Positions 7,707 to 64,000 are shown, numbered from the stretch's first letter. The stretch: 64,000 nucleotides of DNA from an uncultured Gammaproteobacteria bacterium (GCA_964570655.1 CAZMYU010000003.1:34325-98324), one strand, 5' to 3'. Program-made: numbers and translations. The notes: generated from the sequence alone by a model not told the origin.

Positions 7707-7715
7707 AAAAAATAT

Positions 7716-7795
7716 ATTGAAAGATTGAAAATTGAAAATTGAAAAATTTTTTGATTAAGTAATCTTTTAATCTTTTAATCATTCAATCTTTTAAT
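7716..7795. repeat. Inverted array of ATTGAAA(G/A) octamers (long AT-rich hairpin), copy A
   Basis: Left arm ATTGAAAGATTGAAAATTGAAAATTGAAAAA (7716-7746), 14-nt loop TTTTTTGATTAAGT, right arm AATCTTTTAATCTTTTAATCATTCAATCTTTTAAT (7761-7795). Fills the ruvA-proS spacer. Same family as 51206-51287 and 59707/60175. Confidence 0.85.
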
Positions 7796-7799
7796 TAAC

Positions 7800-8375
7800 T
7801 TACTTTTTCATCTTTTTAAGTGCGCTTCTAATCCTTTCACTAGTATCGGTCATTTCTGTTGGTAAGCCCCGCAAAGCTTCTCTGGCTTCGGTCATTGAAT
7901 AGCCTAGAGCCATTAGAGCATCAATCTCATCTCCGGAAGCCATTGATAATCCACTATCACTGGCTGGTGTAAACATTTTATTGATCTTATCTTTTAGCTC
8001 CAAAACAATTCGCTCAGCTGTCTTAGCACCAATTCCAGAAACCTTGGTCAGTAGTCTGGAATCTCCGCGCACGATGGCTTCTTTGATATCTGAACCACTG
8101 GCAATATTTAATACTCCCAAAGCTGATTTAGGACCGATCCCGGAAATAGAAATAAGTAATTCAAATAATTCCAAATCTTCCAAATTTCTAAAACCATACA
8201 AATCCAAGGCTTCCTCTCGTACATATTGATGAGTAAAAACAGCCAAATCAGATTCTAGCTTGATGTCGCTCAAAAAAGTATCTGGAGCAAAAATACCATA
8301 ACCAATATTATTGACCAGTAAAACGAAATAATTAGAGGCTTTCAGTATTACCTGCCCCTTCAAAAATGAAATCAT
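7800..8375 (-). CDS. ruvA: Holliday junction DNA helicase subunit RuvA
   Basis: 191 aa. MISFLKGQV start, two helix-hairpin-helix motifs (ISGIGPKSA, VSGIGAKTAERI), C-terminal domain III. Confidence 0.9.
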   Translation of the reverse strand: MISFLKGQVILKASNYFVLLVNNIGYGIFAPDTFLSDIKLESDLAVFTHQYVREEALDLYGFRNLEDLELFELLISISGIGPKSALGVLNIASGSDIKEAIVRGDSRLLTKVSGIGAKTAERIVLELKDKINKMFTPASDSGLSMASGDEIDALMALGYSMTEAREALRGLPTEMTDTSERIRSALKKMKK

Positions 8376-21320: not shown

Positions 21321-21352
21321 CTCCCATACTCCTAATATTAGGAGTATGGGAG
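21321..21352. repeat. 32-bp perfect palindrome CTCCCATACTCCTAATATTAGGAGTATGGGAG (copy 1)
   Basis: Exact self-complementary 32-mer. An identical copy lies at 22101-22132, exactly 780 bp away. Confidence 0.95.
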
Positions 21353-21356
21353 CGGG

Positions 21357-21409: not shown

Positions 21410-22009
21410 TTAATTTAGCATTTGAGAGAATCTCACATACTCAGAGTCTATTGATGTATATGTTTTCGATAGATGATCTTTTTCACCGAGGATACAATTA
21501 ATCTCTTTGGCAAATCCCTCTCTAAATATACGAGCATTTTCGCCGGTCCATTTCAAAAAAATCTTGGGCATCAAATCTTTGGCCAACCTGACTTCTTCAA
21601 CATGCAAACCAGACTCGGCCTCCATCTTAATAACATGCGCAAAAATTTGTGCGAATCTAAGCGGTGATGAATCACGAGCAGCGGCTTCAAACAAAGAAAA
21701 TAAGAGATTCTTTGTTTTGACATTAACGATGGAATGGTCCAAATGGCAATAATAAGCAATAAAATTAATAGTAGACCAGCTATTAATTTTTTCGGTGAAA
21801 TACGAAACAATCCGGTTGCTTAATGCCGTCATTCTTTTCAGACTCATCTCTTTAAAGAGACTAATCACCTCCTCTTCGTCCTCCTTCATGGCATTGATTA
21901 AGGCAATTTCTAATTTTAAGTTTTTTGCCTTAATTGTTTTGATCATAGAGATAAGACCAAACAAAATAAATCCTCCGGCCAATAATGGCACCAACAATGA
22001 ACTAATCAT
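21410..22009 (-). CDS. Hypothetical protein with N-terminal TM, bracketed by identical palindromes
   Basis: 199 aa. TM LLVPLLAGGFILFGLISMI followed by a helical soluble part. No recognised motif. Has its own promoter and terminator. Confidence 0.55.
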   Translation of the reverse strand: MISSLLVPLLAGGFILFGLISMIKTIKAKNLKLEIALINAMKEDEEEVISLFKEMSLKRMTALSNRIVSYFTEKINSWSTINFIAYYCHLDHSIVNVKTKNLLFSLFEAAARDSSPLRFAQIFAHVIKMEAESGLHVEEVRLAKDLMPKIFLKWTGENARIFREGFAKEINCILGEKDHLSKTYTSIDSEYVRFSQMLN

Positions 22010-22095: not shown

Positions 22096-22100
22096 CCCCA

Positions 22101-22132
22101 CTCCCATACTCCTAATATTAGGAGTATGGGAG
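22101..22132. repeat. 32-bp perfect palindrome CTCCCATACTCCTAATATTAGGAGTATGGGAG (copy 2)
   Basis: Identical to 21321-21352. Here the palindrome extends by CA/TG to 36 bp. Confidence 0.95.
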
Positions 22133-22200: not shown

Positions 22201-22284
22201 TGCCTCGGGAGAGACTCGAACTCTCATGGGATCGCTCCCACACGATTTTGAGTCGTGCGCGTCTACCAGTTCCACCACCGAGGC
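22201..22284 (-). tRNA. tRNA-Leu (anticodon CAA), class II with long variable arm; CCA not encoded
   Basis: Minus strand: GCCTCGG-TG-GTGGAACTGGTAGACGCG-CACGA-CTCAAAA-TCGTG-TGGGAGCGATCCCATG-AGAGT-TCGAGTC-TCTCC... with 3' acceptor CCGAGGC and discriminator A. Acceptor, anticodon and T stems all pair. The anticodon loop is CU-CAA-AA. Confidence 0.92.
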
Positions 22285-27870: not shown

Positions 27871-27887
27871 ATAAATTAAAATTATTT

Positions 27888-28298
27888 AGCTAGGCTATAA
27901 GCCGGATTCTGTCCATAAACAATAAAGTCTATGGGACGATTATTTATCTTGCCCCACAATTACTCGCGGGGTCAGGCGAACTACTTTTCGTCACCCCTAA
28001 GGGGTGGTTCGTTCTTGCTTCAGGCAGGGTTTACCGAGCTAGCTCGTTACCGAGTAGCCAAAGCCGTTAAACGGCTAACTTTTCACCTTTGGCCTTAATC
28101 CGAAGACTAAGGTTAGTATTGTCTCTGTGGCACTTTCCCTTTCCCTCCACCCTTGCGGGTGTTCGGGACGGCGGGTGTTACCCGCTACCTCCGCCCTAAT
28201 GGGCGACCTCAAACCATCTATGGTTTGAGGAAAGTCCGGACTTTCCTCTCCGTTTTCAGTCAAAGACCAAAAAAAACAGAGCAATCGTCCGCCTAGCT
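27888..28298 (-). ncRNA. rnpB: RNase P RNA, bacterial type A
   Basis: Minus strand carries GAGAGGAAAGTCCGGAC (CR-I), AAAGTGCCACAGAGAC, CTCGGTAAACCCTGCC (CR-IV) and GGACAGAATCCGGCTTAT (CR-V). P1 pairs AGCTAGGC with GCCTAGCT. The 95-aa track ORF 28075-28362 overlaps it and is spurious. Confidence 0.93.
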
Positions 28299-28309
28299 TA
28301 ATAATTAAT

Positions 28310-49145: not shown

Positions 49146-50372
49146 TTAAATATAAAATTTCTTAATAATCCACCAAAACCAACTGAAAGGCTTGAAAAGC
49201 CAAGGAGAGCGTCGATAAGCCTTCGCTAAAAATCCCGAGCGCCTGGCTTCGTATTCTTTGACTTGCAAAATTAGCTCAGGAGAATCTGGAATTCTGACTA
49301 CCCCCTTGAGTAATTGACTCAAATTCTGACTATTCTTGGACCAGTCAAATCTAGTCTCGGCTGAGCTTCTAGCCTTCATTTTAAATTCTGGTAAAAATTT
49401 AAAATTATCAATATAATATTGCATCGCCGCAGTTAGAGAATCTTCATCCACATCACATTGGGGCCAAAAATAATTGTCCCCCCGTTTATAAAGCTTAGCT
49501 ATAGCTACTAGTCGACCATTATCACTATCCACGAATTCATTCATGGGTGGATTATCACTGGTGATTACCGGCAGGCCGCAAGATAGGGCCTCACAAATAG
49601 TTAGGCCAATGCCATCCAACCTAGAAGGATAAACATAAACATCCCCCAAATGGTAAAGACCCGGGGCACTAACTTCTTTATTTATAATATCCAATAAATC
49701 AGCTTCTGCCAAGTTTTTAACAGTAACTGCTAAATCCGGATAGGCCTGCACAATATCTGTTTGGGTGTGAATTATTAATTTCCGAGGACCTGTTAATTTA
49801 GCAAAGGCCCGGAGCAAAATATCAGTTCCCTTGCGTTCAGGACTCATGCCACTAGAATGGAAAAAAATTACTTTTTGATTATCAACAGCTTGCAAACTCT
49901 TTGGCTGATAAATACTAGTCTCCGTGCCCCAGGGCACATAAAAAGCTTGCGGGTGGCTGGCAAAGACACTATGATGACGCAAGGTGTTACAAATCAAAAA
50001 ATCATAAAGCCCAAAAAACGGCACTGTCTTTTCCGTATAATAATCAATATAAGCCCCGATCTTAATCTGCAAATCTCTAGCCAAAATAATCGGATCCCAC
50101 CATTGTTGTTCGTTGAAAATCACCAGCTCAATTTTATTTCTAATTAACCATTTTTTAAAATCAGCCAAATCAATAGAAAGAGGCATATGAATCGGAATTT
50201 TTTTTCCCCAAGTCACATAAGGCTTATCCCATTTAGGATCACCAATGGCATATTTCTCTCCACCTCGAGCATAAATTAGAACCTCGTTGTCCCTTTTTAA
50301 AGATTCCAAAAACTGAGAAGACACATAAGCCGCTCCCCTTTCCTGCCAAGTGGTGACAATTCCGATTTTCAT
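49146..50372 (-). CDS. Glycosyltransferase family 4/1 (GT-B)
   Basis: DGIGLTICEALSCGLPVITS motif. The track start 50384 is TTG and overlaps the upstream gene. ATG at 50372 (MKIGIVTTW) lies 4 nt after the upstream stop. Confidence 0.75.
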   Translation of the reverse strand: MKIGIVTTWQERGAAYVSSQFLESLKRDNEVLIYARGGEKYAIGDPKWDKPYVTWGKKIPIHMPLSIDLADFKKWLIRNKIELVIFNEQQWWDPIILARDLQIKIGAYIDYYTEKTVPFFGLYDFLICNTLRHHSVFASHPQAFYVPWGTETSIYQPKSLQAVDNQKVIFFHSSGMSPERKGTDILLRAFAKLTGPRKLIIHTQTDIVQAYPDLAVTVKNLAEADLLDIINKEVSAPGLYHLGDVYVYPSRLDGIGLTICEALSCGLPVITSDNPPMNEFVDSDNGRLVAIAKLYKRGDNYFWPQCDVDEDSLTAAMQYYIDNFKFLPEFKMKARSSAETRFDWSKNSQNLSQLLKGVVRIPDSPELILQVKEYEARRSGFLAKAYRRSPWLFKPFSWFWWIIKKFYI

Positions 50373-50376
50373 AATT

Positions 50377-51198
50377 TTAAACAATTAAATTTTTAAAGTT
50401 ATCAAGCTGCTCATAAATAGCCACTGGATAAAAAGATTTGTCCTGATTCATATCCAAAATCTTAATCTTAAAATCAGTTTTGGGGTCAAAAGGATATTGT
50501 TTGTTTGAGATAGCCGCTTCTAATATTTCCGGCTGAGCCAAATGAGCGAAATCACTTTGGTGAGCATAAGAATTAAGCTTGCTAATCATCTCCGGAACCG
50601 ATAAACACCAAGAAAAATGACAACCAGCGATAGGCTGATAGAGCCGGCCAAAATAACGCCATTGGCCAGGATATTTATTTTTGTAAACTTTGGCCAAGCA
50701 AGCAATCGGACCAATAAATTTGTTGTTCTCCCAAAAATAATTAATTTTGTAAAAAAATTGATAGAGCGAAAATAAATAACTTTTGGGCTGCCAAAAATAT
50801 TTTCTATTTTTGAGTTTTTCGATAATGATAGGATAGACGGATCGAAAAATAATCTCATCAGCATCCACAGAAAAGACAATATCATCATCATGCAAGTCCA
50901 CCTGACTAGCAAAATAACCGCGAATCACCTGCTCGTTGGCATGAGCCAACTTGGCATTGTCTTTGGCTGGGCTAACTAAGTCAGTCAAGTCGCCAGTGAC
51001 ATAAATAATCTTGGCTCTTTCGGCTTCAGTAAATTCTGCTAAATATTTGGAGAAAATAAGCTCTCGTTTTTCTCCCACATGATTATAATTGAATTCGCAA
51101 ATAATAAACTTATCAACAAAATCGCCAGCTTCCGCTAAATTGAGTTTGAGATATTTTATTTCTGGCTCGCTATAAAAAAGTGTTTTGAGATAAATCAT
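50377..51198 (-). CDS. Putative GT17-like glycosyltransferase
   Basis: 273 aa. The N-terminal pattern (FYSEPEIKYLKLNLAEAGDFVDKFIICEFNYNHVGEKRE) resembles bacterial GT17 homologues. Weak, by-eye call. Confidence 0.4.
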   Translation of the reverse strand: MIYLKTLFYSEPEIKYLKLNLAEAGDFVDKFIICEFNYNHVGEKRELIFSKYLAEFTEAERAKIIYVTGDLTDLVSPAKDNAKLAHANEQVIRGYFASQVDLHDDDIVFSVDADEIIFRSVYPIIIEKLKNRKYFWQPKSYLFSLYQFFYKINYFWENNKFIGPIACLAKVYKNKYPGQWRYFGRLYQPIAGCHFSWCLSVPEMISKLNSYAHQSDFAHLAQPEILEAAISNKQYPFDPKTDFKIKILDMNQDKSFYPVAIYEQLDNFKNLIV

Positions 51199-51205
51199 AT
51201 AATAA

Positions 51206-51287
51206 ATTGAAAATTGAAAGATTGAAAATTGAAAAATTTCTTAATTAAATTAATCTTTCAATCGTTCAATCTTTTAATCCTTCAATC
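51206..51287. repeat. Inverted array of ATTGAAA(G/A) octamers, copy B
   Basis: Left arm ATTGAAAATTGAAAGATTGAAAATTGAAAAA, loop TTTCTTAATTAAATT, right arm AATCTTTCAATCGTTCAATCTTTTAATCCTTCAATC. Fills the spacer between two GT genes. Confidence 0.85.
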
Positions 51288-51289
51288 AC

Positions 51290-58453: not shown

Positions 58454-59698
58454 TTATTGCTTAATTCCCTCCCAAGCCTGATCAACATACACCAAGCTAT
58501 GAATAATATTAGAACCAGTGCCAAAAAAATCACCGGACAAAACATCAAACTTAATAATATTAGAAATATAATCCAGCTCCACATCACTAGCGGACACCCG
58601 CACAGCTACCGTATAAGTGCCGGGGGTCAGCGGTATTTTTTTGATTAAACACTTGAATTTTCCTCGACCACTGATTTCTCCAAAGTCGGTACCCGTCATT
58701 TGATTATGACATAAAAAAATAGAATTATGATACTGATCCAAAATCCCAGCTCCAATAATAATATTGGACAAAGTCATGCCTTCCTTGACCTCATAATCAA
58801 AAACCAATTTATAATCTTTGCCCACGGCAATATAATCGGTTCGATACCCTTCAGCGGTTTCAAAATAACAATCAGTTATTTTCAGATCGCCATTACCGCT
58901 CCGATCAGTCCGATCTTTTAGTGACAGATCAGCTAGTTTCAAAGATTCTTTTAGATAAGATCCAATCACTTCGCTAGTTGGTCCAAACATTTTGAGCTCA
59001 CCATGATGCAACCACACGGTCTTTTGACACAAATTTTGAATAGCGCCCATATTGTGACTAACAAAAATAACAGTCCGTCCCTCAGTTCGAGCGACCTCTT
59101 CCATTTTGCCCAAACATTTTTTTTGAAACTCGGCATCGCCGACTGCCAAAACCTCATCAACAATTAAAATATCTGGCTCCATATGAGCAGCCACAGCAAA
59201 AGCCAGACGAACATACATACCACTCGAATAATATTTGACCGGAGTATCCAAAAATTTATCTACCCCCGAAAATTCTACAATTTTATCAAATTTAGCAGCA
59301 ATTTCCTGACGACTCATACCTAAAATCGCTCCATTTAAAGAAATGTTTTCCCGACCAGACAATTCTGGATGAAAACCGGTGCCGACTTCCAAGAGACTCC
59401 CAACTCGACCATTAATTTTTATTTCGCCAGTCGAAGGCGGAGTAATCTGCGACAAAATTTTAAGCAGTGTCGACTTACCAGCACCATTGGAACCAATTAC
59501 TCCCAAGATTTCTCCTGGCGCCACATTGATATTAATATTTTTCAGAGCCCAAAATTCTTCTTTTTTGTCGCGCCTCTTAAAAATTCGAAAAGGATGCTGA
59601 AAAAAATTGATCAGTGAATCACGTAAGGTCAAATAACCGCCTTTGCGATGAGCGATTTTGTATTTCTTTCCTAAATTTTTTATTTCAATGGCAAACAT
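58454..59698 (-). CDS. wzt: Polysaccharide ABC exporter ATP-binding protein (Wzt/TagH) with C-terminal beta-sandwich extension
   Basis: 414 aa. Walker A GSNGAGKST, signature YSSGM, Walker B ILIVDE, plus about 165 extra C-terminal residues resembling the Wzt_C glycan-binding domain. Confidence 0.88.
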   Translation of the reverse strand: MFAIEIKNLGKKYKIAHRKGGYLTLRDSLINFFQHPFRIFKRRDKKEEFWALKNININVAPGEILGVIGSNGAGKSTLLKILSQITPPSTGEIKINGRVGSLLEVGTGFHPELSGRENISLNGAILGMSRQEIAAKFDKIVEFSGVDKFLDTPVKYYSSGMYVRLAFAVAAHMEPDILIVDEVLAVGDAEFQKKCLGKMEEVARTEGRTVIFVSHNMGAIQNLCQKTVWLHHGELKMFGPTSEVIGSYLKESLKLADLSLKDRTDRSGNGDLKITDCYFETAEGYRTDYIAVGKDYKLVFDYEVKEGMTLSNIIIGAGILDQYHNSIFLCHNQMTGTDFGEISGRGKFKCLIKKIPLTPGTYTVAVRVSASDVELDYISNIIKFDVLSGDFFGTGSNIIHSLVYVDQAWEGIKQ

Positions 59699-59706
59699 AG
59701 ATGTTA

Positions 59707-59741
59707 ATTGAAAGATTGAATGATTGAATGATTAAATGATT
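59707..59741. repeat. ATTGAAAG-type octamer array, left arm of split copy C
   Basis: ATTGAAAGATTGAATGATTGAATGATTAAATGATT between the wzt start and the four-helix-bundle gene stop. Confidence 0.85.
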
Positions 59742-59744
59742 TGA

Positions 59745-60125
59745 CTATTTTTTCCTAGCATAATTGATTAATAGAAATTTTCTAAAATTGGATAATTGCT
59801 GAGAAATGTTTTCTAATTTTAAATAAAAAATATCAAAGTCTGCCTGATTAATGTATTGGCTATCAAGGGCGATATACAAAACAGATCTTACCTCACCAGC
59901 TGAACCTTTGGCAATATTTAAAAAATTAGCAAACTGCGAATTTGACCCTCGTTCAAACCCTTCAGCAATATTCAACATAATAGAATAAGTTGCTCTTTTT
60001 AGTTGGCTTACCAATACATAGTCTTTTTTAAACTTACAGGAACTATATATCAATTTATAAAGATCGCCAATTAGCACTCTCGAACTCTCCCAAACCGGAA
60101 CATCTTCGAATCTCTTATAATGCAT
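59745..60125 (-). CDS. Four-helix-bundle protein (23S rRNA intervening-sequence protein / Avd family)
   Basis: 126 aa. VWESSRVLIGDLYKL, SQLKRATYSIMLNIAEGFERGS, FLNIAKGSAGEVRSVLYIA are family-typical motifs. Confidence 0.85.
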   Translation of the reverse strand: MHYKRFEDVPVWESSRVLIGDLYKLIYSSCKFKKDYVLVSQLKRATYSIMLNIAEGFERGSNSQFANFLNIAKGSAGEVRSVLYIALDSQYINQADFDIFYLKLENISQQLSNFRKFLLINYARKK

Positions 60126-60174
60126 AGCATTAATTAATATCGAAGGGGGATATTTATATGTTAATTAATAAAAG

Positions 60175-60209
60175 AATCTTTCAATTTTCAATCTTTCAAT
60201 TTTTCAATC
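60175..60209. repeat. ATTGAAAG-type octamer array, right arm of split copy C
   Basis: AATCTTTCAATTTTCAATCTTTCAATTTTTCAATC ends at the wzm stop codon. About 80% complementary to 59707-59741 by hand alignment. Confidence 0.85.
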
Positions 60210-61031
60210 TTATATAATATCGGCAAAATATTTTTCGGTCTTTTTAAAATAAACAAAGCCAATAATTAATAACAACAAACAGGCCACACTAGAAATTCCC
60301 AGCAGCGTCCAATTGATTGGCGCGCCACCAAGTAGAGCCGAGCGAGCCGCTTTGATAACCCCGGTCATCGGGTTGATCGCCAAAATCCAAGAATACTTGC
60401 CGGCAATAGAAGGCGGATAAATAACTGGAGTTAAAAACAATAAAATTTGAATAAAAAATGGCAAGGCATAACGAACATCCCGATATTTGACATTGATAGC
60501 AGCCAGTAATAATCCGCCACCTAAAGCCGCCAAAAAAGAAATAAACAATAAAAGTGGAATTATAAGGAGGCCAGCCAAATTTGGAGTGTAATGATAATAA
60601 ATCATGAGCCCAATTAAAATAATAGAGGCAATAAAAAAATCAACAAACTTTACCAAAATAGTAGAGGCCGGCAAAATAATGCGCGGGAAATAAACCTTGG
60701 TAATAATTTGCTGATTGTTGATCAAAGAATTGCTAGCATCACTAAGTGAAGTTGAAAAAAATTGCCACATAATTAGCCCCACAAACACAAAAATCGGATA
60801 AGGAATACCATCGGAAGGCATTTTGGCTAATCCCCCAAAAAAAACACTAAACACTACCATAGTAATAAAGGGCTGAAACAAGGCCCAAGAAACTCCAATG
60901 GCGGTCTGCTTATAACGGACCTTTAGGTCGCGCCAAGCAAAAAATAGCAATAGCTCGCGGTATTGCCAAAATTCCCTAAAATCAGTGAAGCTTAGGGTTT
61001 TTTTAGGTTTAATAATCGTCATTATTTTCAT
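60210..61031 (-). CDS. wzm: Polysaccharide ABC exporter permease (ABC-2 type, Wzm/TagG)
   Basis: 273 aa, 6 TM. FAWRDLKVRYKQTAIGVSWALFQP is the typical ABC-2 N-terminal motif. Confidence 0.88.
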   Translation of the reverse strand: MKIMTIIKPKKTLSFTDFREFWQYRELLLFFAWRDLKVRYKQTAIGVSWALFQPFITMVVFSVFFGGLAKMPSDGIPYPIFVFVGLIMWQFFSTSLSDASNSLINNQQIITKVYFPRIILPASTILVKFVDFFIASIILIGLMIYYHYTPNLAGLLIIPLLLFISFLAALGGGLLLAAINVKYRDVRYALPFFIQILLFLTPVIYPPSIAGKYSWILAINPMTGVIKAARSALLGGAPINWTLLGISSVACLLLLIIGFVYFKKTEKYFADII

Positions 61032-61169: not shown

Positions 61170-64000
61170 TTATTTAACAAAGGTGTTACCGGTTAAAGGC
61201 AAATTCTTGACTAAGTAACCATTAATGTAACCACTAATAGTACTGTCGTTCCATTGCCAGTTGGTACCAGTTAACAAGGTGTCAGCTGAGGTTAGATCCA
61301 TACGAATGGATTTACCAGCAGTGTCCCAAGTACCAGTGGTGTCAACTTTAACCACATAGGTCTTCGAAGAGTTGGCTGGGATGACTGAATCGGTAGTAAA
61401 GGTAGTGGTAGTAGCAGTACCGGAGTTTCCGATAGCCCAACCAGAACCATTTAAAGCGTTGACTAAATCATCCTGATCATAGATCTTCACCTTCTGAGAA
61501 GAAGTGCTAGTTAAAGTAGAATCCGAGAAGATAGGAGTGTAGGTCAAGGAATTGAAATTAATCGGCATGCTTGAACCATTGGTTACGGTGAAGTGTAGCA
61601 AATCGCTAGCACCTGAACCAGTATAACCAGTACTCATACCCGCTGGGTTGTTACTAGCTAAAGTCACAACCGGATAAGCACCCACTACCATCATTAAAGC
61701 TGAAGGAACAGCTAAAGCGCTACCACCATTAACAGCAGTGCTACCTAAGGTATTGGTGCTGCCAATAGTATATTTATAATCAGTCAAAACGAGTCTGAGC
61801 TGATCATTGGTATTAGCTCCGCCCATTCCAGCACTGGTGATGTTACTTAATACCGCGCTAACTGGAACTTGAAGACCAGTATTGCCAGCCGGAACAACTA
61901 AGTTGAGGCCAGTAATATGAACGGTAGAAGTAGCCGCGCCAACGATAACTGGAGCGTTAACACCGCCGACAGTCAAAGAGGCTACAGTACTAGTATTTTG
62001 AGTGGTAGTAACATTTTTCACGACACTGAACCACAATTCGCTGATAGTCGCCGCACCGTTGTTGGCTACAAATTTGTAGGTCGCCACGGTTTGAGTGGTT
62101 CCGCCCAATAGTAATTGGGAAGCAGGAGCATTGGTCACGAGAGTCGGGGCCGCTAAGCTACCGCTTTGGATGGTCAAAATCTGACCAGCCTTAGAACCAG
62201 AAACTGAAGTGCGGGTATTATGACCAACCGCGGTTACCGCTAAGGTAACTTGGCTAGTGGTACCAGCTGAGATATTACCCAAGTCGGCAAAGACATCGAT
62301 AGTCTTAGTGCCATTGACTGGGATATTGAAACTCACTGGGAAGTTGTTAGCACCAGATTGAGGCATGATTGGAGAGGTATTCTCCGAAACATACAAGTTA
62401 GACAAAGTGGTGAAGTCAACCAAAGTACCACCAATGGTCACCGCCAAATTGCTCACATCCACAGATTCGGCCGAACCGGTCTGTAAGATAAATGAACCAA
62501 TCTTTTGGTTATTCACATTGTTGATCACGTTTTGACTGGTAAAGCTGCTATTGGTAGCTACAGTCAAAGCGCCATTGACGATAGACATAGTCTGGTTCGT
62601 CAAAGTGGTCACAGCAGTAGCTGGGTAAGTCGCATAAGAGGACTGACCTTCAGCTTTGGTGGCCTGCAAGATCAAATCAGCTTTCACAGTGGAAAGAGCT
62701 GAAGATGAAACCTGGGTCAAGTCACCTTTGACTTCGACGGTAACGGTCGTACCGGCTGGGATGGTGAACAAATTGTTCGTACCAAAACTAGCACCACCTA
62801 ACAAGGAGGTACCAGTGACACCAGCACCGGTTGGGAAGACACCACTAGCCAAAACAAAGTTTTGAGTGGAGCCAACCTGAGAACCATTAACATAGATAGC
62901 CAAATTGTTGATACCTTCAGTCGCAGCCGCGGTGCCAGTAAAGGTAATTTTGGTACCCAAACTGTTGACCTTCATATTTTCACCATAAGCTTTCATGGTG
63001 TATTTAGCAAAGGTCACGCCAGTGGCGTTTTTGACAACCTGGTTGGTGGTAAAGGTAGAATCAGCCGAAGTGGAGATAGTACCAGAAGCCACGGTATAGG
63101 TATAGGTATTGGTGTTAATCGCACCAGTCGCCGTCACGTTCACATTGTAGTTGCTGTCGGTAAGAACCATATCAGAAGCTAATTGAACGTTGAAGCTAAA
63201 GGTTCGACTAGAACCCTTGATAACATCGGCTCGTAATTCCACAGTAGTAGCACCAGTGCTTAACAAAACTGGAGCACTGTTTAGATCAAAGATAACTCGG
63301 TTATCAACAATAGAAGCAGCGGAACCAGCTTGGGTGCCGTTAACATACAATTTCAAGTTCTGCAAAGCATCGCTCGGAATTGAACCAACTTGTTTGAAGC
63401 TCATATACTTCAAATAGGTAGCTTTGTTGTTAACAGTAAAAGGAGCTGACCACACAGTGGAATTCATGGTACCGGCATTGACATTAGCATTGGCTGAAGG
63501 GATGGTTAAAGCACCAACCACAACAGTCGCCATATCAGATGGGGTAGCCATTAAAGACATCAAATTACCAGTAACTGGGAATGAACCAGAAACGGTCGCG
63601 CCAGCCGCATTAATATCGGCAGCCGCATCAATGCCCATAGCAATGTTACCAGTCGTACCACTGGACGAAATATCCGCCTTGACAGTAATAGTCTTGGTGG
63701 TTCCGGCCGGGATGGTCACGATACCTGAGGCATTAGAGAAAGTAACATAACCACCGCTCAGTGAGCCTGGGTCAGTTAATTTATTATTGCCATCATATAG
63801 GTAAACATTTGATAAGTAAGCATCGGATGACACGCCAGTTCTCTTAACTTTAATGGAGGTCAAAGTAACCGCGCCATCATTGGAAGCAGTCAAATTGATA
63901 CTCGTCATTGAAGCTGAAGATTGAGTGGCGATTAGGCTAGAAGCCGCAGCAGTGTTGGACGCCAAAGAAACAGATAATCCAGTTCCGGCGCTAACGACGG
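61170..64000 (-). CDS. Large repetitive Thr/Ser/Asn/Gly/Ala/Val-rich, cysteine-free surface (S-layer-like) protein; 5' end beyond window
   Basis: The track ORF begins at a TTG (63965), but the frame stays open to nt 64000 (...VVSAGTGLSVS-LASNT). At least 6 tandem modules of about 120-130 aa each contain NL.LYVNG.QVGS ... IPAGTT.T..V.AD-type strands. No Cys in 931 aa. Confidence 0.7.
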   Translation of the reverse strand, partial: VVSAGTGLSVSLASNTAAASSLIATQSSASMTSINLTASNDGAVTLTSIKVKRTGVSSDAYLSNVYLYDGNNKLTDPGSLSGGYVTFSNASGIVTIPAGTTKTITVKADISSSGTTGNIAMGIDAAADINAAGATVSGSFPVTGNLMSLMATPSDMATVVVGALTIPSANANVNAGTMNSTVWSAPFTVNNKATYLKYMSFKQVGSIPSDALQNLKLYVNGTQAGSAASIVDNRVIFDLNSAPVLLSTGATTVELRADVIKGSSRTFSFNVQLASDMVLTDSNYNVNVTATGAINTNTYTYTVASGTISTSADSTFTTNQVVKNATGVTFAKYTMKAYGENMKVNSLGTKITFTGTAAATEGINNLAIYVNGSQVGSTQNFVLASGVFPTGAGVTGTSLLGGASFGTNNLFTIPAGTTVTVEVKGDLTQVSSSALSTVKADLILQATKAEGQSSYATYPATAVTTLTNQTMSIVNGALTVATNSSFTSQNVINNVNNQKIGSFILQTGSAESVDVSNLAVTIGGTLVDFTTLSNLYVSENTSPIMPQSGANNFPVSFNIPVNGTKTIDVFADLGNISAGTTSQVTLAVTAVGHNTRTSVSGSKAGQILTIQSGSLAAPTLVTNAPASQLLLGGTTQTVATYKFVANNGAATISELWFSVVKNVTTTQNTSTVASLTVGGVNAPVIVGAATSTVHITGLNLVVPAGNTGLQVPVSAVLSNITSAGMGGANTNDQLRLVLTDYKYTIGSTNTLGSTAVNGGSALAVPSALMMVVGAYPVVTLASNNPAGMSTGYTGSGASDLLHFTVTNGSSMPINFNSLTYTPIFSDSTLTSTSSQKVKIYDQDDLVNALNGSGWAIGNSGTATTTTFTTDSVIPANSSKTYVVKVDTTGTWDTAGKSIRMDLTSADTLLTGTNWQWNDSTISGYINGYLVKNLPLTGNTFVK

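Follow-up and report, generated by a model that had tools for sequence, protein, structure and literature searches.

The PF05635/TIGR02436 protein family was first found inside intervening sequences (IVSs) of 23S ribosomal RNA (rRNA); to our knowledge, it has been without an assigned function since that discovery in the 1990s, and we know of no catalytic domain in it. In Coxiella burnetii, the 23S IVS encodes a protein of this family, S23p, the inverted repeats at its ends make up a 28-bp stem that RNase III cuts mid-stem, and three to four tandem GACAGAT heptamers, variable in number among strains, lie between the 5′ processing site and the open reading frame (ORF) (Warrier et al. 2016, PMC4990558), while the family member of X. 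campestris has been reported as a homopentamer (PMC4990558). Short tandem arrays are also known from intergenic DNA: Geobacter metallireducens carries paired octa- and heptanucleotide arrays between genes, described as ‘global regulator binding sites’, beside which IS110 and IS481 elements have inserted (Aklujkar et al. 2009, PMC2700814), and intergenic heptamer repeats occur in Xanthomonas and Nostoc (PMC4692102) and in Beggiatoaceae (PMC4679880). A text search finds no mention of the S23p family in these last three papers, and our literature search, in a library that is incomplete and so does not prove novelty, returned no paper linking the family to flanking arrays. Here we analyse a 64,000-nt stretch of DNA from an uncultured Gammaproteobacteria bacterium (GCA_964570655.1, CAZMYU010000003.1:34325-98324; hereafter the window), in which the interval between a wzm-like and a wzt-like gene (59699–60209) holds a gene for a four-helix-bundle (4HB) protein of this family enclosed by two complementary octamer arrays. 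We think it probable that this interval is a copy of an IVS-type cassette that occurs widely, is bounded by a hairpin and rides in the operon as a selfish or at any rate self-contained unit. The reading draws on the architecture of the locus, its presence or absence in relatives, the homology of its arms, their recurrence elsewhere with both arms changing together, and the family membership and fold of the protein.

Results

All genes around the cassette lie on the minus strand (Table 1). On the transcribed strand, the 5′ arm, of a type that we call alpha, begins at base 1 past the wzm stop codon (60209 down to 60175), and the 3′ arm, of a type that we call beta, follows the 4HB ORF as AATCATTTAATCATTCAATCATTCAATCTTTCAAT (59741 down to 59707), with few bases left before the wzt ATG. 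The arms (59707–59741 versus 60175–60209) are spaced 433 nt apart and are inverted arrays of a ATTGAAAG-type unit with about 4.5 units each. The loop-proximal motif CTTTTATTAATTAAC beside the alpha arm has its counterparts, TTTTTGATTAA and TTCTTAATTAA, in the loops of two hairpins elsewhere in the window, H1 and H2, which hold no ORF. An Rfam scan of the window returned only RNase P RNA and one tRNA, so that the cassette does not lie in an rRNA helix.

An earlier note, made from the sequence alone, had described the arms as imperfect reverse complements built of octamers and the ORF between wzm and wzt as a 126-aa 4HB protein of the IVS/Avd family, and both descriptions held up. The arms are 84% complementary over 25 nt by repeat search, and their predicted RNA duplex reaches −22.5 kcal/mol in sense and −25.0 kcal/mol in antisense orientation versus −6.4 ± 2.7 kcal/mol for a shuffled arm. 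The stable long helix that the note had proposed as a check is also predicted, with the arms pairing in both the minimum free energy (MFE) and the centroid folds of the 521-nt interval, and bases of the 5′ arm retain a mean probability of 0.65–0.69 of pairing with the 3′ arm even in a context of 811–1101 nt. As in IVSs, the two ends of the element are complementary and enclose it in an extended stem. The octamer pattern ATTGAAWGATTGAAW, searched with up to two mismatches, has 15 matches in the window (2.96 ± 1.86 expected), 14 of them within the cassette, H1 and H2, and in complementarity between upstream and downstream flanks the 4HB ORF ranks highest among 56 window genes. Chance or low complexity as the source of the arms is ruled out by the shuffles and the control genes.

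The encoded protein belongs firmly to the family, matching PF05635 with E = 2e-31 and 108.7 bits (curated cut-off 33.8) and TIGR02436 with 101.2 bits (cut-off 24), and it has no other match in Pfam or NCBIfam and none in PADLOC or PHROGs, which cover defence and phage families. Its AlphaFold2 monomer model has a predicted local distance difference test score (pLDDT) of 94.9. With this model, Foldseek finds 2GSC (template modelling (TM) score 0.83–0.90) and 2RLD (TM up to 0.78–0.86), both of which are also matched at the profile level, and next Avd (4DWL; TM 0.72/0.84, 13% identity). Both solved structures of the family, 2GSC and 2RLD, have five chains in their PDB entries. The family is large, with 23,065 clusters at 50% identity matching its profile (E ≤ 0.001), and just one relative was found among 2.9 million viral contigs. 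The cassette carries no transposase: the 4HB protein is its sole ORF, and the Y1/HUH domain that identifies REP-associated tyrosine transposases (RAYTs; REP, repetitive extragenic palindrome) is lacking.

Comparison of orthologous wzm–wzt junctions indicates that the cassette is an insertion or deletion of its own. In the four closest Wzm relatives (83–87% identical), the two genes are only 5–6 nt apart (TTATCT, TTTTTT, TCCTT) with neither hairpin nor 4HB ORF, and the window’s Wzm nests inside these four ‘empty’ relatives in a tree that, like the 4HB tree below, is built on short proteins and is not strong. The empty junctions imply that arms and ORF were gained together, or lost together and precisely, as a 511-nt unit; as judged from this nesting, the cassette was probably gained as one unit in a 5–6-nt wzm–wzt spacer. 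The order wzm–4HB–wzt recurs in at least 10 of 83 loci, where the arm units differ, the 4HB proteins belong to a different clade and the Wzm proteins are only 65–73% identical to that of the window. Most 4HB proteins of these junction loci form one clade with ATAGAAAA-type arms in a rough neighbour-joining tree, and the window’s 4HB protein falls in another clade, the other members of which sit outside wzm–wzt. The second clade and arm type at this junction, together with the empty close relatives, suggest that cassettes reached this short spacer at least twice, independently. Presence at this fixed site is sporadic, as it is for IVSs, with the cassette absent from the four closest relatives and present with other arms in distant ones.

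The same architecture recurs widely. A profile of 39 relatives yielded 80 metagenomic loci encoding proteins 42–68% identical to the query. In these, we viewed 110 nt on either side of each 4HB ORF and scored the local alignment of the upstream flank against the reverse complement of the downstream flank, with 64 other genes of the same loci as controls; permuted flank pairs proved uninformative as a control since many loci share units. The recurring picture is a purine-rich tandem array of 7–8-nt units upstream of the 4HB ORF and its reverse complement downstream. Flank complementarity exceeds the 95th percentile of the controls in 54 of 67 4HB loci, with a median score of 40 for 4HB genes versus 17 for controls (Mann–Whitney p = 5e-16), and in six low-scoring loci the 3′ arm lies farther downstream, past a second ORF. 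Among the 54 loci there are 38 distinct unit consensus sequences with a period of 7 or 8 and a median of 4.4 units per arm, and in 37 of them the 5′ and 3′ units are reverse complements of each other when one base of difference is allowed. Unit pairs include ATTGAAAG/CTTTCAAT, ATAGAAAA/TTTTCTAT, GATTCAAG/CTTGAATC, GTTCAAAG/CTTTGAAC, GTTCCGA/TCGGAAC, GGGGAAAA/TTTTCCCC and ATTACAAG/CTTGTAAT. That both arms change together through 38 units amounts to covariation for the stem enclosing the ORF. The arms fit tightly between their neighbours, at a median distance of 4.5 nt for the 5′ arm from the upstream stop codon and of 7 nt for the 3′ arm from the start codon that follows, and 4HB genes are co-oriented with the upstream neighbour 50:5 and with the downstream neighbour 51:12. 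A 4HB protein 68% identical to the query is found in another setting at L045, where its gene has ATTGAAAG-type arms and is placed between a dksA-like gene and comM. Cultured carriers include Nostoc sp. ATCC 53789 (pNsp_c, NZ_CP046706.1 96451–96828; GGGAAAAG arms), Riemerella anatipestifer (NZ_CP081938.1 100318–100734; GGTTCAAG arms) and Picosynechococcus PCC 7003 (NZ_CP016476.1 126543–126899). The proposal of the earlier note that hairpin and ORF form a portable IVS-like module is strengthened by the 54 array-flanked loci, by the empty junctions and by the layout of the Coxiella IVS (PMC4990558).

Association in the reverse direction is weak. The exact 22-mer ATTGAAAGATTGAAAATTGAAA was found in 42 genomic loci, from Prevotella/Bacteroidales, Patescibacteria, Saccharibacteria, Anaerolineae, Polaribacter and Chitinophagales (L009, L012, L021, L024, L033, L036, L042 and others), and a 4HB gene lies within 8 kb in just one of the 42, which rules out that the ATTGAAAG array is tightly linked to 4HB genes. 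Many of these loci are from Bacteroidales and carry long unpaired tandem arrays, at times beside a second array type, GGAATAAC, and no 4HB gene within the same distance. Lodging in 23S rRNA helices, suggested in the earlier note as a place to look, was not seen in any fetched 4HB locus by a conserved-motif search, so that the link to rRNA rests on the literature.

Several individual loci add detail to this survey. Between the 4HB gene and the 3′ arm, second ORFs were seen at L048 (3378–3662, 94 aa, hydrophobic-looking), L052 (536–1291, 251 aa, nucleotidyltransferase-like motif), L053 (3377–3808, 143 aa, ParB-like motif) and L055 (880–1110, 76 aa, resembling a NUDIX fragment), all labelled by eye from their sequence and candidates only. 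At L084 (1409–1493) and L086 (1154–1270), the 4HB gene has an ORF-less array hairpin immediately upstream and an additional 3′ arm on its downstream side, so that the 5′ arm has two possible partners and alternative pairings are possible. Truncated or frameshifted 4HB ORFs with their upstream arrays kept (L056, L102 and L124; 86, 23 and 46 aa to the first stop) suggest decaying copies on the way to ORF-less hairpins. On two cyanobacterial plasmids, short tandem arrays flank a 4HB gene within a cas operon, between cas10/cmr2 and cmr3 (L144, NZ_CP016476.1 126543–126899) and between cas6 and cas4 (L145, NZ_CP112875.1 46268–46627), which may account for the listing of ‘23S rRNA IVP’ among CRISPR-array-associated proteins (Altae-Tran et al. 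2023, PMC10910872). In ten Patescibacteria-like loci (L050, L058, L064, L069, L072, L075, L076, L078, L079 and L086), cassettes sit in apparent glycan or O-antigen-type clusters with glycosyltransferases, NAD-dependent epimerases, GDP-fucose synthase-like genes and wzm/wzt, as identified by Pfam glycosyltransferases in L050 and judged from the N termini of downstream genes in the rest; this setting may be a real preference or a reflection of long operons.

H1 and H2 bring the relationship between hairpin and cassette into the window itself. H1 fills the whole spacer between ruvA and an aminoacyl-tRNA synthetase (aaRS) gene, and H2 that between two glycosyltransferase genes; with respect to the host genes, both are inverted relative to the cassette. 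When the six arms of the three copies are aligned in one orientation and scored by Smith–Waterman (SW) local alignment, the 60175–60209 arm and the left arms of both short hairpins form the alpha class (scores of 61–69); the cassette’s alpha arm scores 61–65 against those left arms and 39 against its own partner arm. Similarity within this class continues loop-ward (ATT-CTTTTATTAA, ATT-TTTTGATTAA, ATT-TCTTAATTAA), with the motif ATT..TTT.ATTAA common to all three copies. In the beta class, the 59703–59741 arm is identical to the right arm of the 7716–7795 hairpin at 35 of 39 positions, including the outer GTTAATT. Since arms of one class are more alike across copies than are the two arms within a copy, we take the three as copies of one dispersed element and not as products of independent local slippage. 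Judged from their arms, the two short hairpins are ORF-less copies of the cassette’s element, and the cassette looks like a short hairpin with about 430 nt, containing the 4HB ORF, in its loop. The window hence presents, as for miniature inverted-repeat transposable elements (MITEs), terminal inverted repeats with three dispersed copies that have homologous ends in 64 kb.

What had been claimed for these copies stands in part. The arm types are the same at 7716–7795 and 51206–51287, and three of four strand folds have z scores of −3.5 to −5.6, but the minus strand of 7710–7800 (H1) reaches only −1.7. The supposed loop remnant is kept beside the alpha arm as the loop-proximal motif; of five occurrences of TTAATTAA in 64 kb, four fall within the three elements, two of them between the 60175–60209 arm and the ORF start and one in the loop of the 51206 hairpin, but the one at the 7716 hairpin is at the outer end and not in the loop. 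The idea that ORF-less hairpins are empty sites fails at the wzm|wzt junction, where the true empty site has no hairpin; they are possibly derived copies. In relatives, the ruvA–aaRS site is an ordinary spacer of about 125 nt without arrays, in a comparison limited to distant relatives (RuvA about 63% identical). Next to H2, 50377–51198 and 49146–50384 were considered as a second wzm/wzt pair and rejected, as both are glycosyltransferases.

Table 1 Features of the cassette, its ORF-less copies and structured RNAs in the 64,000-nt window
Feature	Position	Strand	Basis or note
Whole intercistronic interval (cassette)	59699..60209	-	511 nt, wzm stop to wzt start
wzm-like ABC-2 permease, upstream host gene	60210..61031	-	PF01061
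wzt-like ATPase (ABC_tran and Wzt_C domains), downstream host gene	58454..59698	-	Pfam match
126-aa 4HB gene, S23p/IVS-encoded protein family	59745..60125	-	PF05635/TIGR02436
5′ arm, alpha type; GATTGAAAAATTGAAAGATTGAAAATTGAAAGATT on transcribed strand, ~4.5 units	60175..60209	-	Repeat search, duplex folding
Loop-proximal motif CTTTTATTAATTAAC adjoining alpha arm	60160..60174	-	Alpha-arm alignment extends into motif
3′ arm, beta type; AATCATTTAATCATTCAATCATTCAATCTTTCAATTAAC on transcribed strand	59703..59741	-	Repeat search, duplex folding, arm alignment
ORF-less copy H1; fills ruvA–aaRS spacer; alpha arm left, beta arm right	7707..7799	.	Folds, arm alignment
ORF-less copy H2; fills spacer of two glycosyltransferase genes; orientation as H1	51199..51289	.	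Folds, arm alignment
Bacterial RNase P RNA class A	27882-28300	-	Rfam, 171.8 bits
tRNA	22201-22284	-	Rfam

Beyond these elements, a 931-aa ORF directly upstream of wzm (61170–63965, minus strand) has no Pfam match, is rich in T, S, A, G, N and V and has a G+C content of 0.43–0.50 versus 0.28–0.42 in its neighbours; it may encode a surface or S-layer-like protein. Elsewhere, an ORF without Pfam match (21410–22009, 199 aa) beside the tRNA is flanked on both sides by the same 28-nt perfect palindrome, CCCATACTCCTAATATTAGGAGTATGGG, each time inside a 36-nt repeat of 97% complementarity (21321–21356 and 22097–22132); the window has no further copies.

Discussion

If the cassette is of the IVS type, it would be transcribed within the wzm–wzt message. 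A terminator scan of 59699–60209 found no terminator-like site, the stems being A/U-rich and without a GC-rich stem and U-tract, and a promoter scan upstream of the 4HB ORF gave a single 9/12 match, not above chance; with co-orientation and no convincing promoter or terminator of its own, the cassette is most likely co-transcribed with wzm and wzt. In that RNA, the arms would pair into a stem of about 30 bp with the ORF inside, and RNase III would cut this stem by analogy with rRNA IVSs, freeing the mRNA of the small gene and parting the wzm from the wzt segment, with whatever effect on wzm/wzt expression this may have. Such stem-driven removal of the insert from the transcript would explain why rRNA helices and intercistronic gaps alike can tolerate it.

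Several observations weigh against this reading. The fold of the whole 521-nt interval has a z score of only −0.74, which confines the signal to the arms or terminal stem and leaves none in the interior. Among stem mismatches, G.U is not favoured on the sense strand, at 38 versus 49 of A.C type, and duplex energies favour the sense strand in 24 and the antisense strand in 28 loci (p = 0.91), so that selection could act on the DNA or on both strands, or homogenization may be too fast to show a bias. The arrays of Pseudanabaena galeata and L106 are direct and a Calothrix copy has none; in the former (L145), AAAGCTA is repeated 14 times upstream and AAAGCCA 10 times downstream of the 4HB gene in the same strand sense, and these direct arrays raise the possibility that the arrays, and not only the stem, are the conserved feature. 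In Coxiella, moreover, the IVS RNA is quickly degraded and S23p is apparently not made (PMC4990558).

The lack of a sense-strand RNA signature would be expected if the element were mobile at the level of DNA, the arrays being terminal repeats or binding sites, the ORF-less hairpins non-autonomous members (MITE-like or similar to REPINs, REP doublets forming hairpins) and the pentameric 4HB protein a factor that recognizes the units for spread or maintenance, with an incidental RNA stem. Such an element, which is compatible with excision at the RNA level and which we regard as rather unlikely, would also fit hairpin copies in both orientations relative to host transcription, the greater likeness of arms across copies than within a copy, the change of arm units along with the 4HB clade, and unit-wise gain with repeated use of one junction. 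Also in its favour, the arms have a median of 4.4 units, both solved family members were deposited with five chains and the X. campestris protein is a reported homopentamer (PMC4990558), and Ralph and McClelland proposed the IVS ORF as a mobility factor, as cited in the same paper. Set against it are the 41 of 42 genomic loci that have the 22-mer array without a 4HB gene within 8 kb, the strong co-orientation with host genes, which a DNA-only element would not need, and the want of target-site duplications: direct repeats of 2–5 nt at the arm boundaries occur no more often than shuffling predicts across 43 loci, where boundaries are uncertain in AT-rich arrays, and an apparent TAA duplication at the window copy was dismissed as not meaningful in AT-rich sequence. 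Nor does the family offer a known catalytic domain or a PADLOC or PHROGs match.

The return of the cassette to one junction in at least 10 of 83 loci could instead reflect a function for the host, in which the array hairpin would stabilize the intercistronic mRNA, attenuate transcription or gate translation and so set the Wzm:Wzt ratio, with the 4HB protein as RNA-binding accessory or passenger. The 3′ arm, with a median of 7 nt left between its end and the next start codon, does occupy the downstream ribosome-binding region, and the paired arrays of G. metallireducens are annotated as regulator-binding sites (PMC2700814), yet the closest relatives manage without the cassette, its contexts are unrelated (a dksA-like gene and comM, glycosyltransferases, epimerases, cas operons) and the stem lacks the GC-rich stem and U-tract of a terminator, all of which make such a role improbable. 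We consider it very unlikely that array hairpins pre-existed as REP-like repeats into the loops of which 4HB and other small genes were inserted by a hairpin-targeting mechanism. 4HB loci commonly have array hairpins without an ORF, built of many different units, loops at times hold additional, unrelated ORFs and IS110 and IS481 elements adjoin such arrays in G. metallireducens, as secondary capture would have it, but the empty wzm|wzt junction has no hairpin, and the association of 4HB genes with arrays holds across very different hosts and units, with control genes in the same loci showing none.

The hairpin-bounded cassette of the IVS type therefore remains our preferred reading, and it suggests that rRNA ‘intervening sequences’ are an instance of a far broader class of elements. 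In the loci sampled, the 4HB gene usually comes between two tandem arrays that are complementary and vary in concert, and gene and arrays arrive as one unit in the short gap separating two cistrons, apparently at least twice at the same junction. This offers a unified, testable view of the origin of rRNA IVSs, the nature of at least some intergenic heptamer and octamer arrays, the presence of 4HB genes in cas and glycan operons and a possible origin of Avd, for which the cultured carriers are suited to end mapping and RNase III tests. In its furthest form, which we think unlikely and put forward only as speculation, array-hairpin elements would be an unrecognized mobile class with autonomous and non-autonomous members, in which the pentameric 4HB protein recognizes the 7–8-nt units (about 4–5 per arm) and mediates spread or maintenance without target-site duplication; rRNA IVSs, the intergenic heptamer and octamer arrays of Geobacter, Xanthomonas, Nostoc and bacteria of the candidate phyla radiation (CPR), and the 4HB genes in cas and polysaccharide operons would all be one system, and Avd a domesticated relative.

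Comparison with known systems

Avd, the accessory protein of diversity-generating retroelements, shares the four-helix-bundle fold (TM 0.72–0.84) and is part of an RNA–protein complex with reverse transcriptase (entries 4DWL and 8UB7). It differs in sequence, at 13% identity, and in setting, as the cassette neighbours wzm and wzt and there is no reverse transcriptase among the ORFs checked around the locus, which next comprise a methyltransferase, glycosyltransferases and the 931-aa ORF. Families such as REP/REPIN–RAYT, MITEs and foldback transposons likewise combine dispersed intergenic hairpins with a gene-carrying form bounded by the same inverted arms, whose sequence is tied to the lineage of that gene, and foldback arms are also tandem repeats. 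Here, by contrast, the gene encodes a 126-aa helical bundle without known nuclease or recombinase motif, and no target-site duplication was detected.

The arrays of G. metallireducens resemble H1 and H2 in having three to five tandem units of 7–9 nt on opposite strands, at short spacing and between consecutive genes. Those of Geobacter, Xanthomonas, Nostoc and Beggiatoaceae have been read as protein-binding or G-quadruplex elements, however, and not as arms of a gene cassette.

Closest are the rRNA IVSs of Coxiella burnetii and Leptospira, which enclose the same protein family, have purine-rich 7–8-nt tandem repeats of variable copy number upstream and are similar to the cassette in size (428 nt versus ~505 nt) and in a sporadic distribution consistent with gain. 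The cassette lies between protein-coding cistrons whereas IVSs take the place of the loop of an rRNA helix (helix 9, 25 or 45 of 23S, or 16S), which makes it IVS-like and not an IVS by location. Both of its arms are wholly tandem units, and it has ORF-less relatives with homologous arms close by. IVSs are cut out of the precursor by RNase III without religation; such excision, demonstrated for Coxiella, is here predicted by analogy. Finally, the ORF that is decaying and apparently silent in Coxiella is intact and conserved in the cassette.

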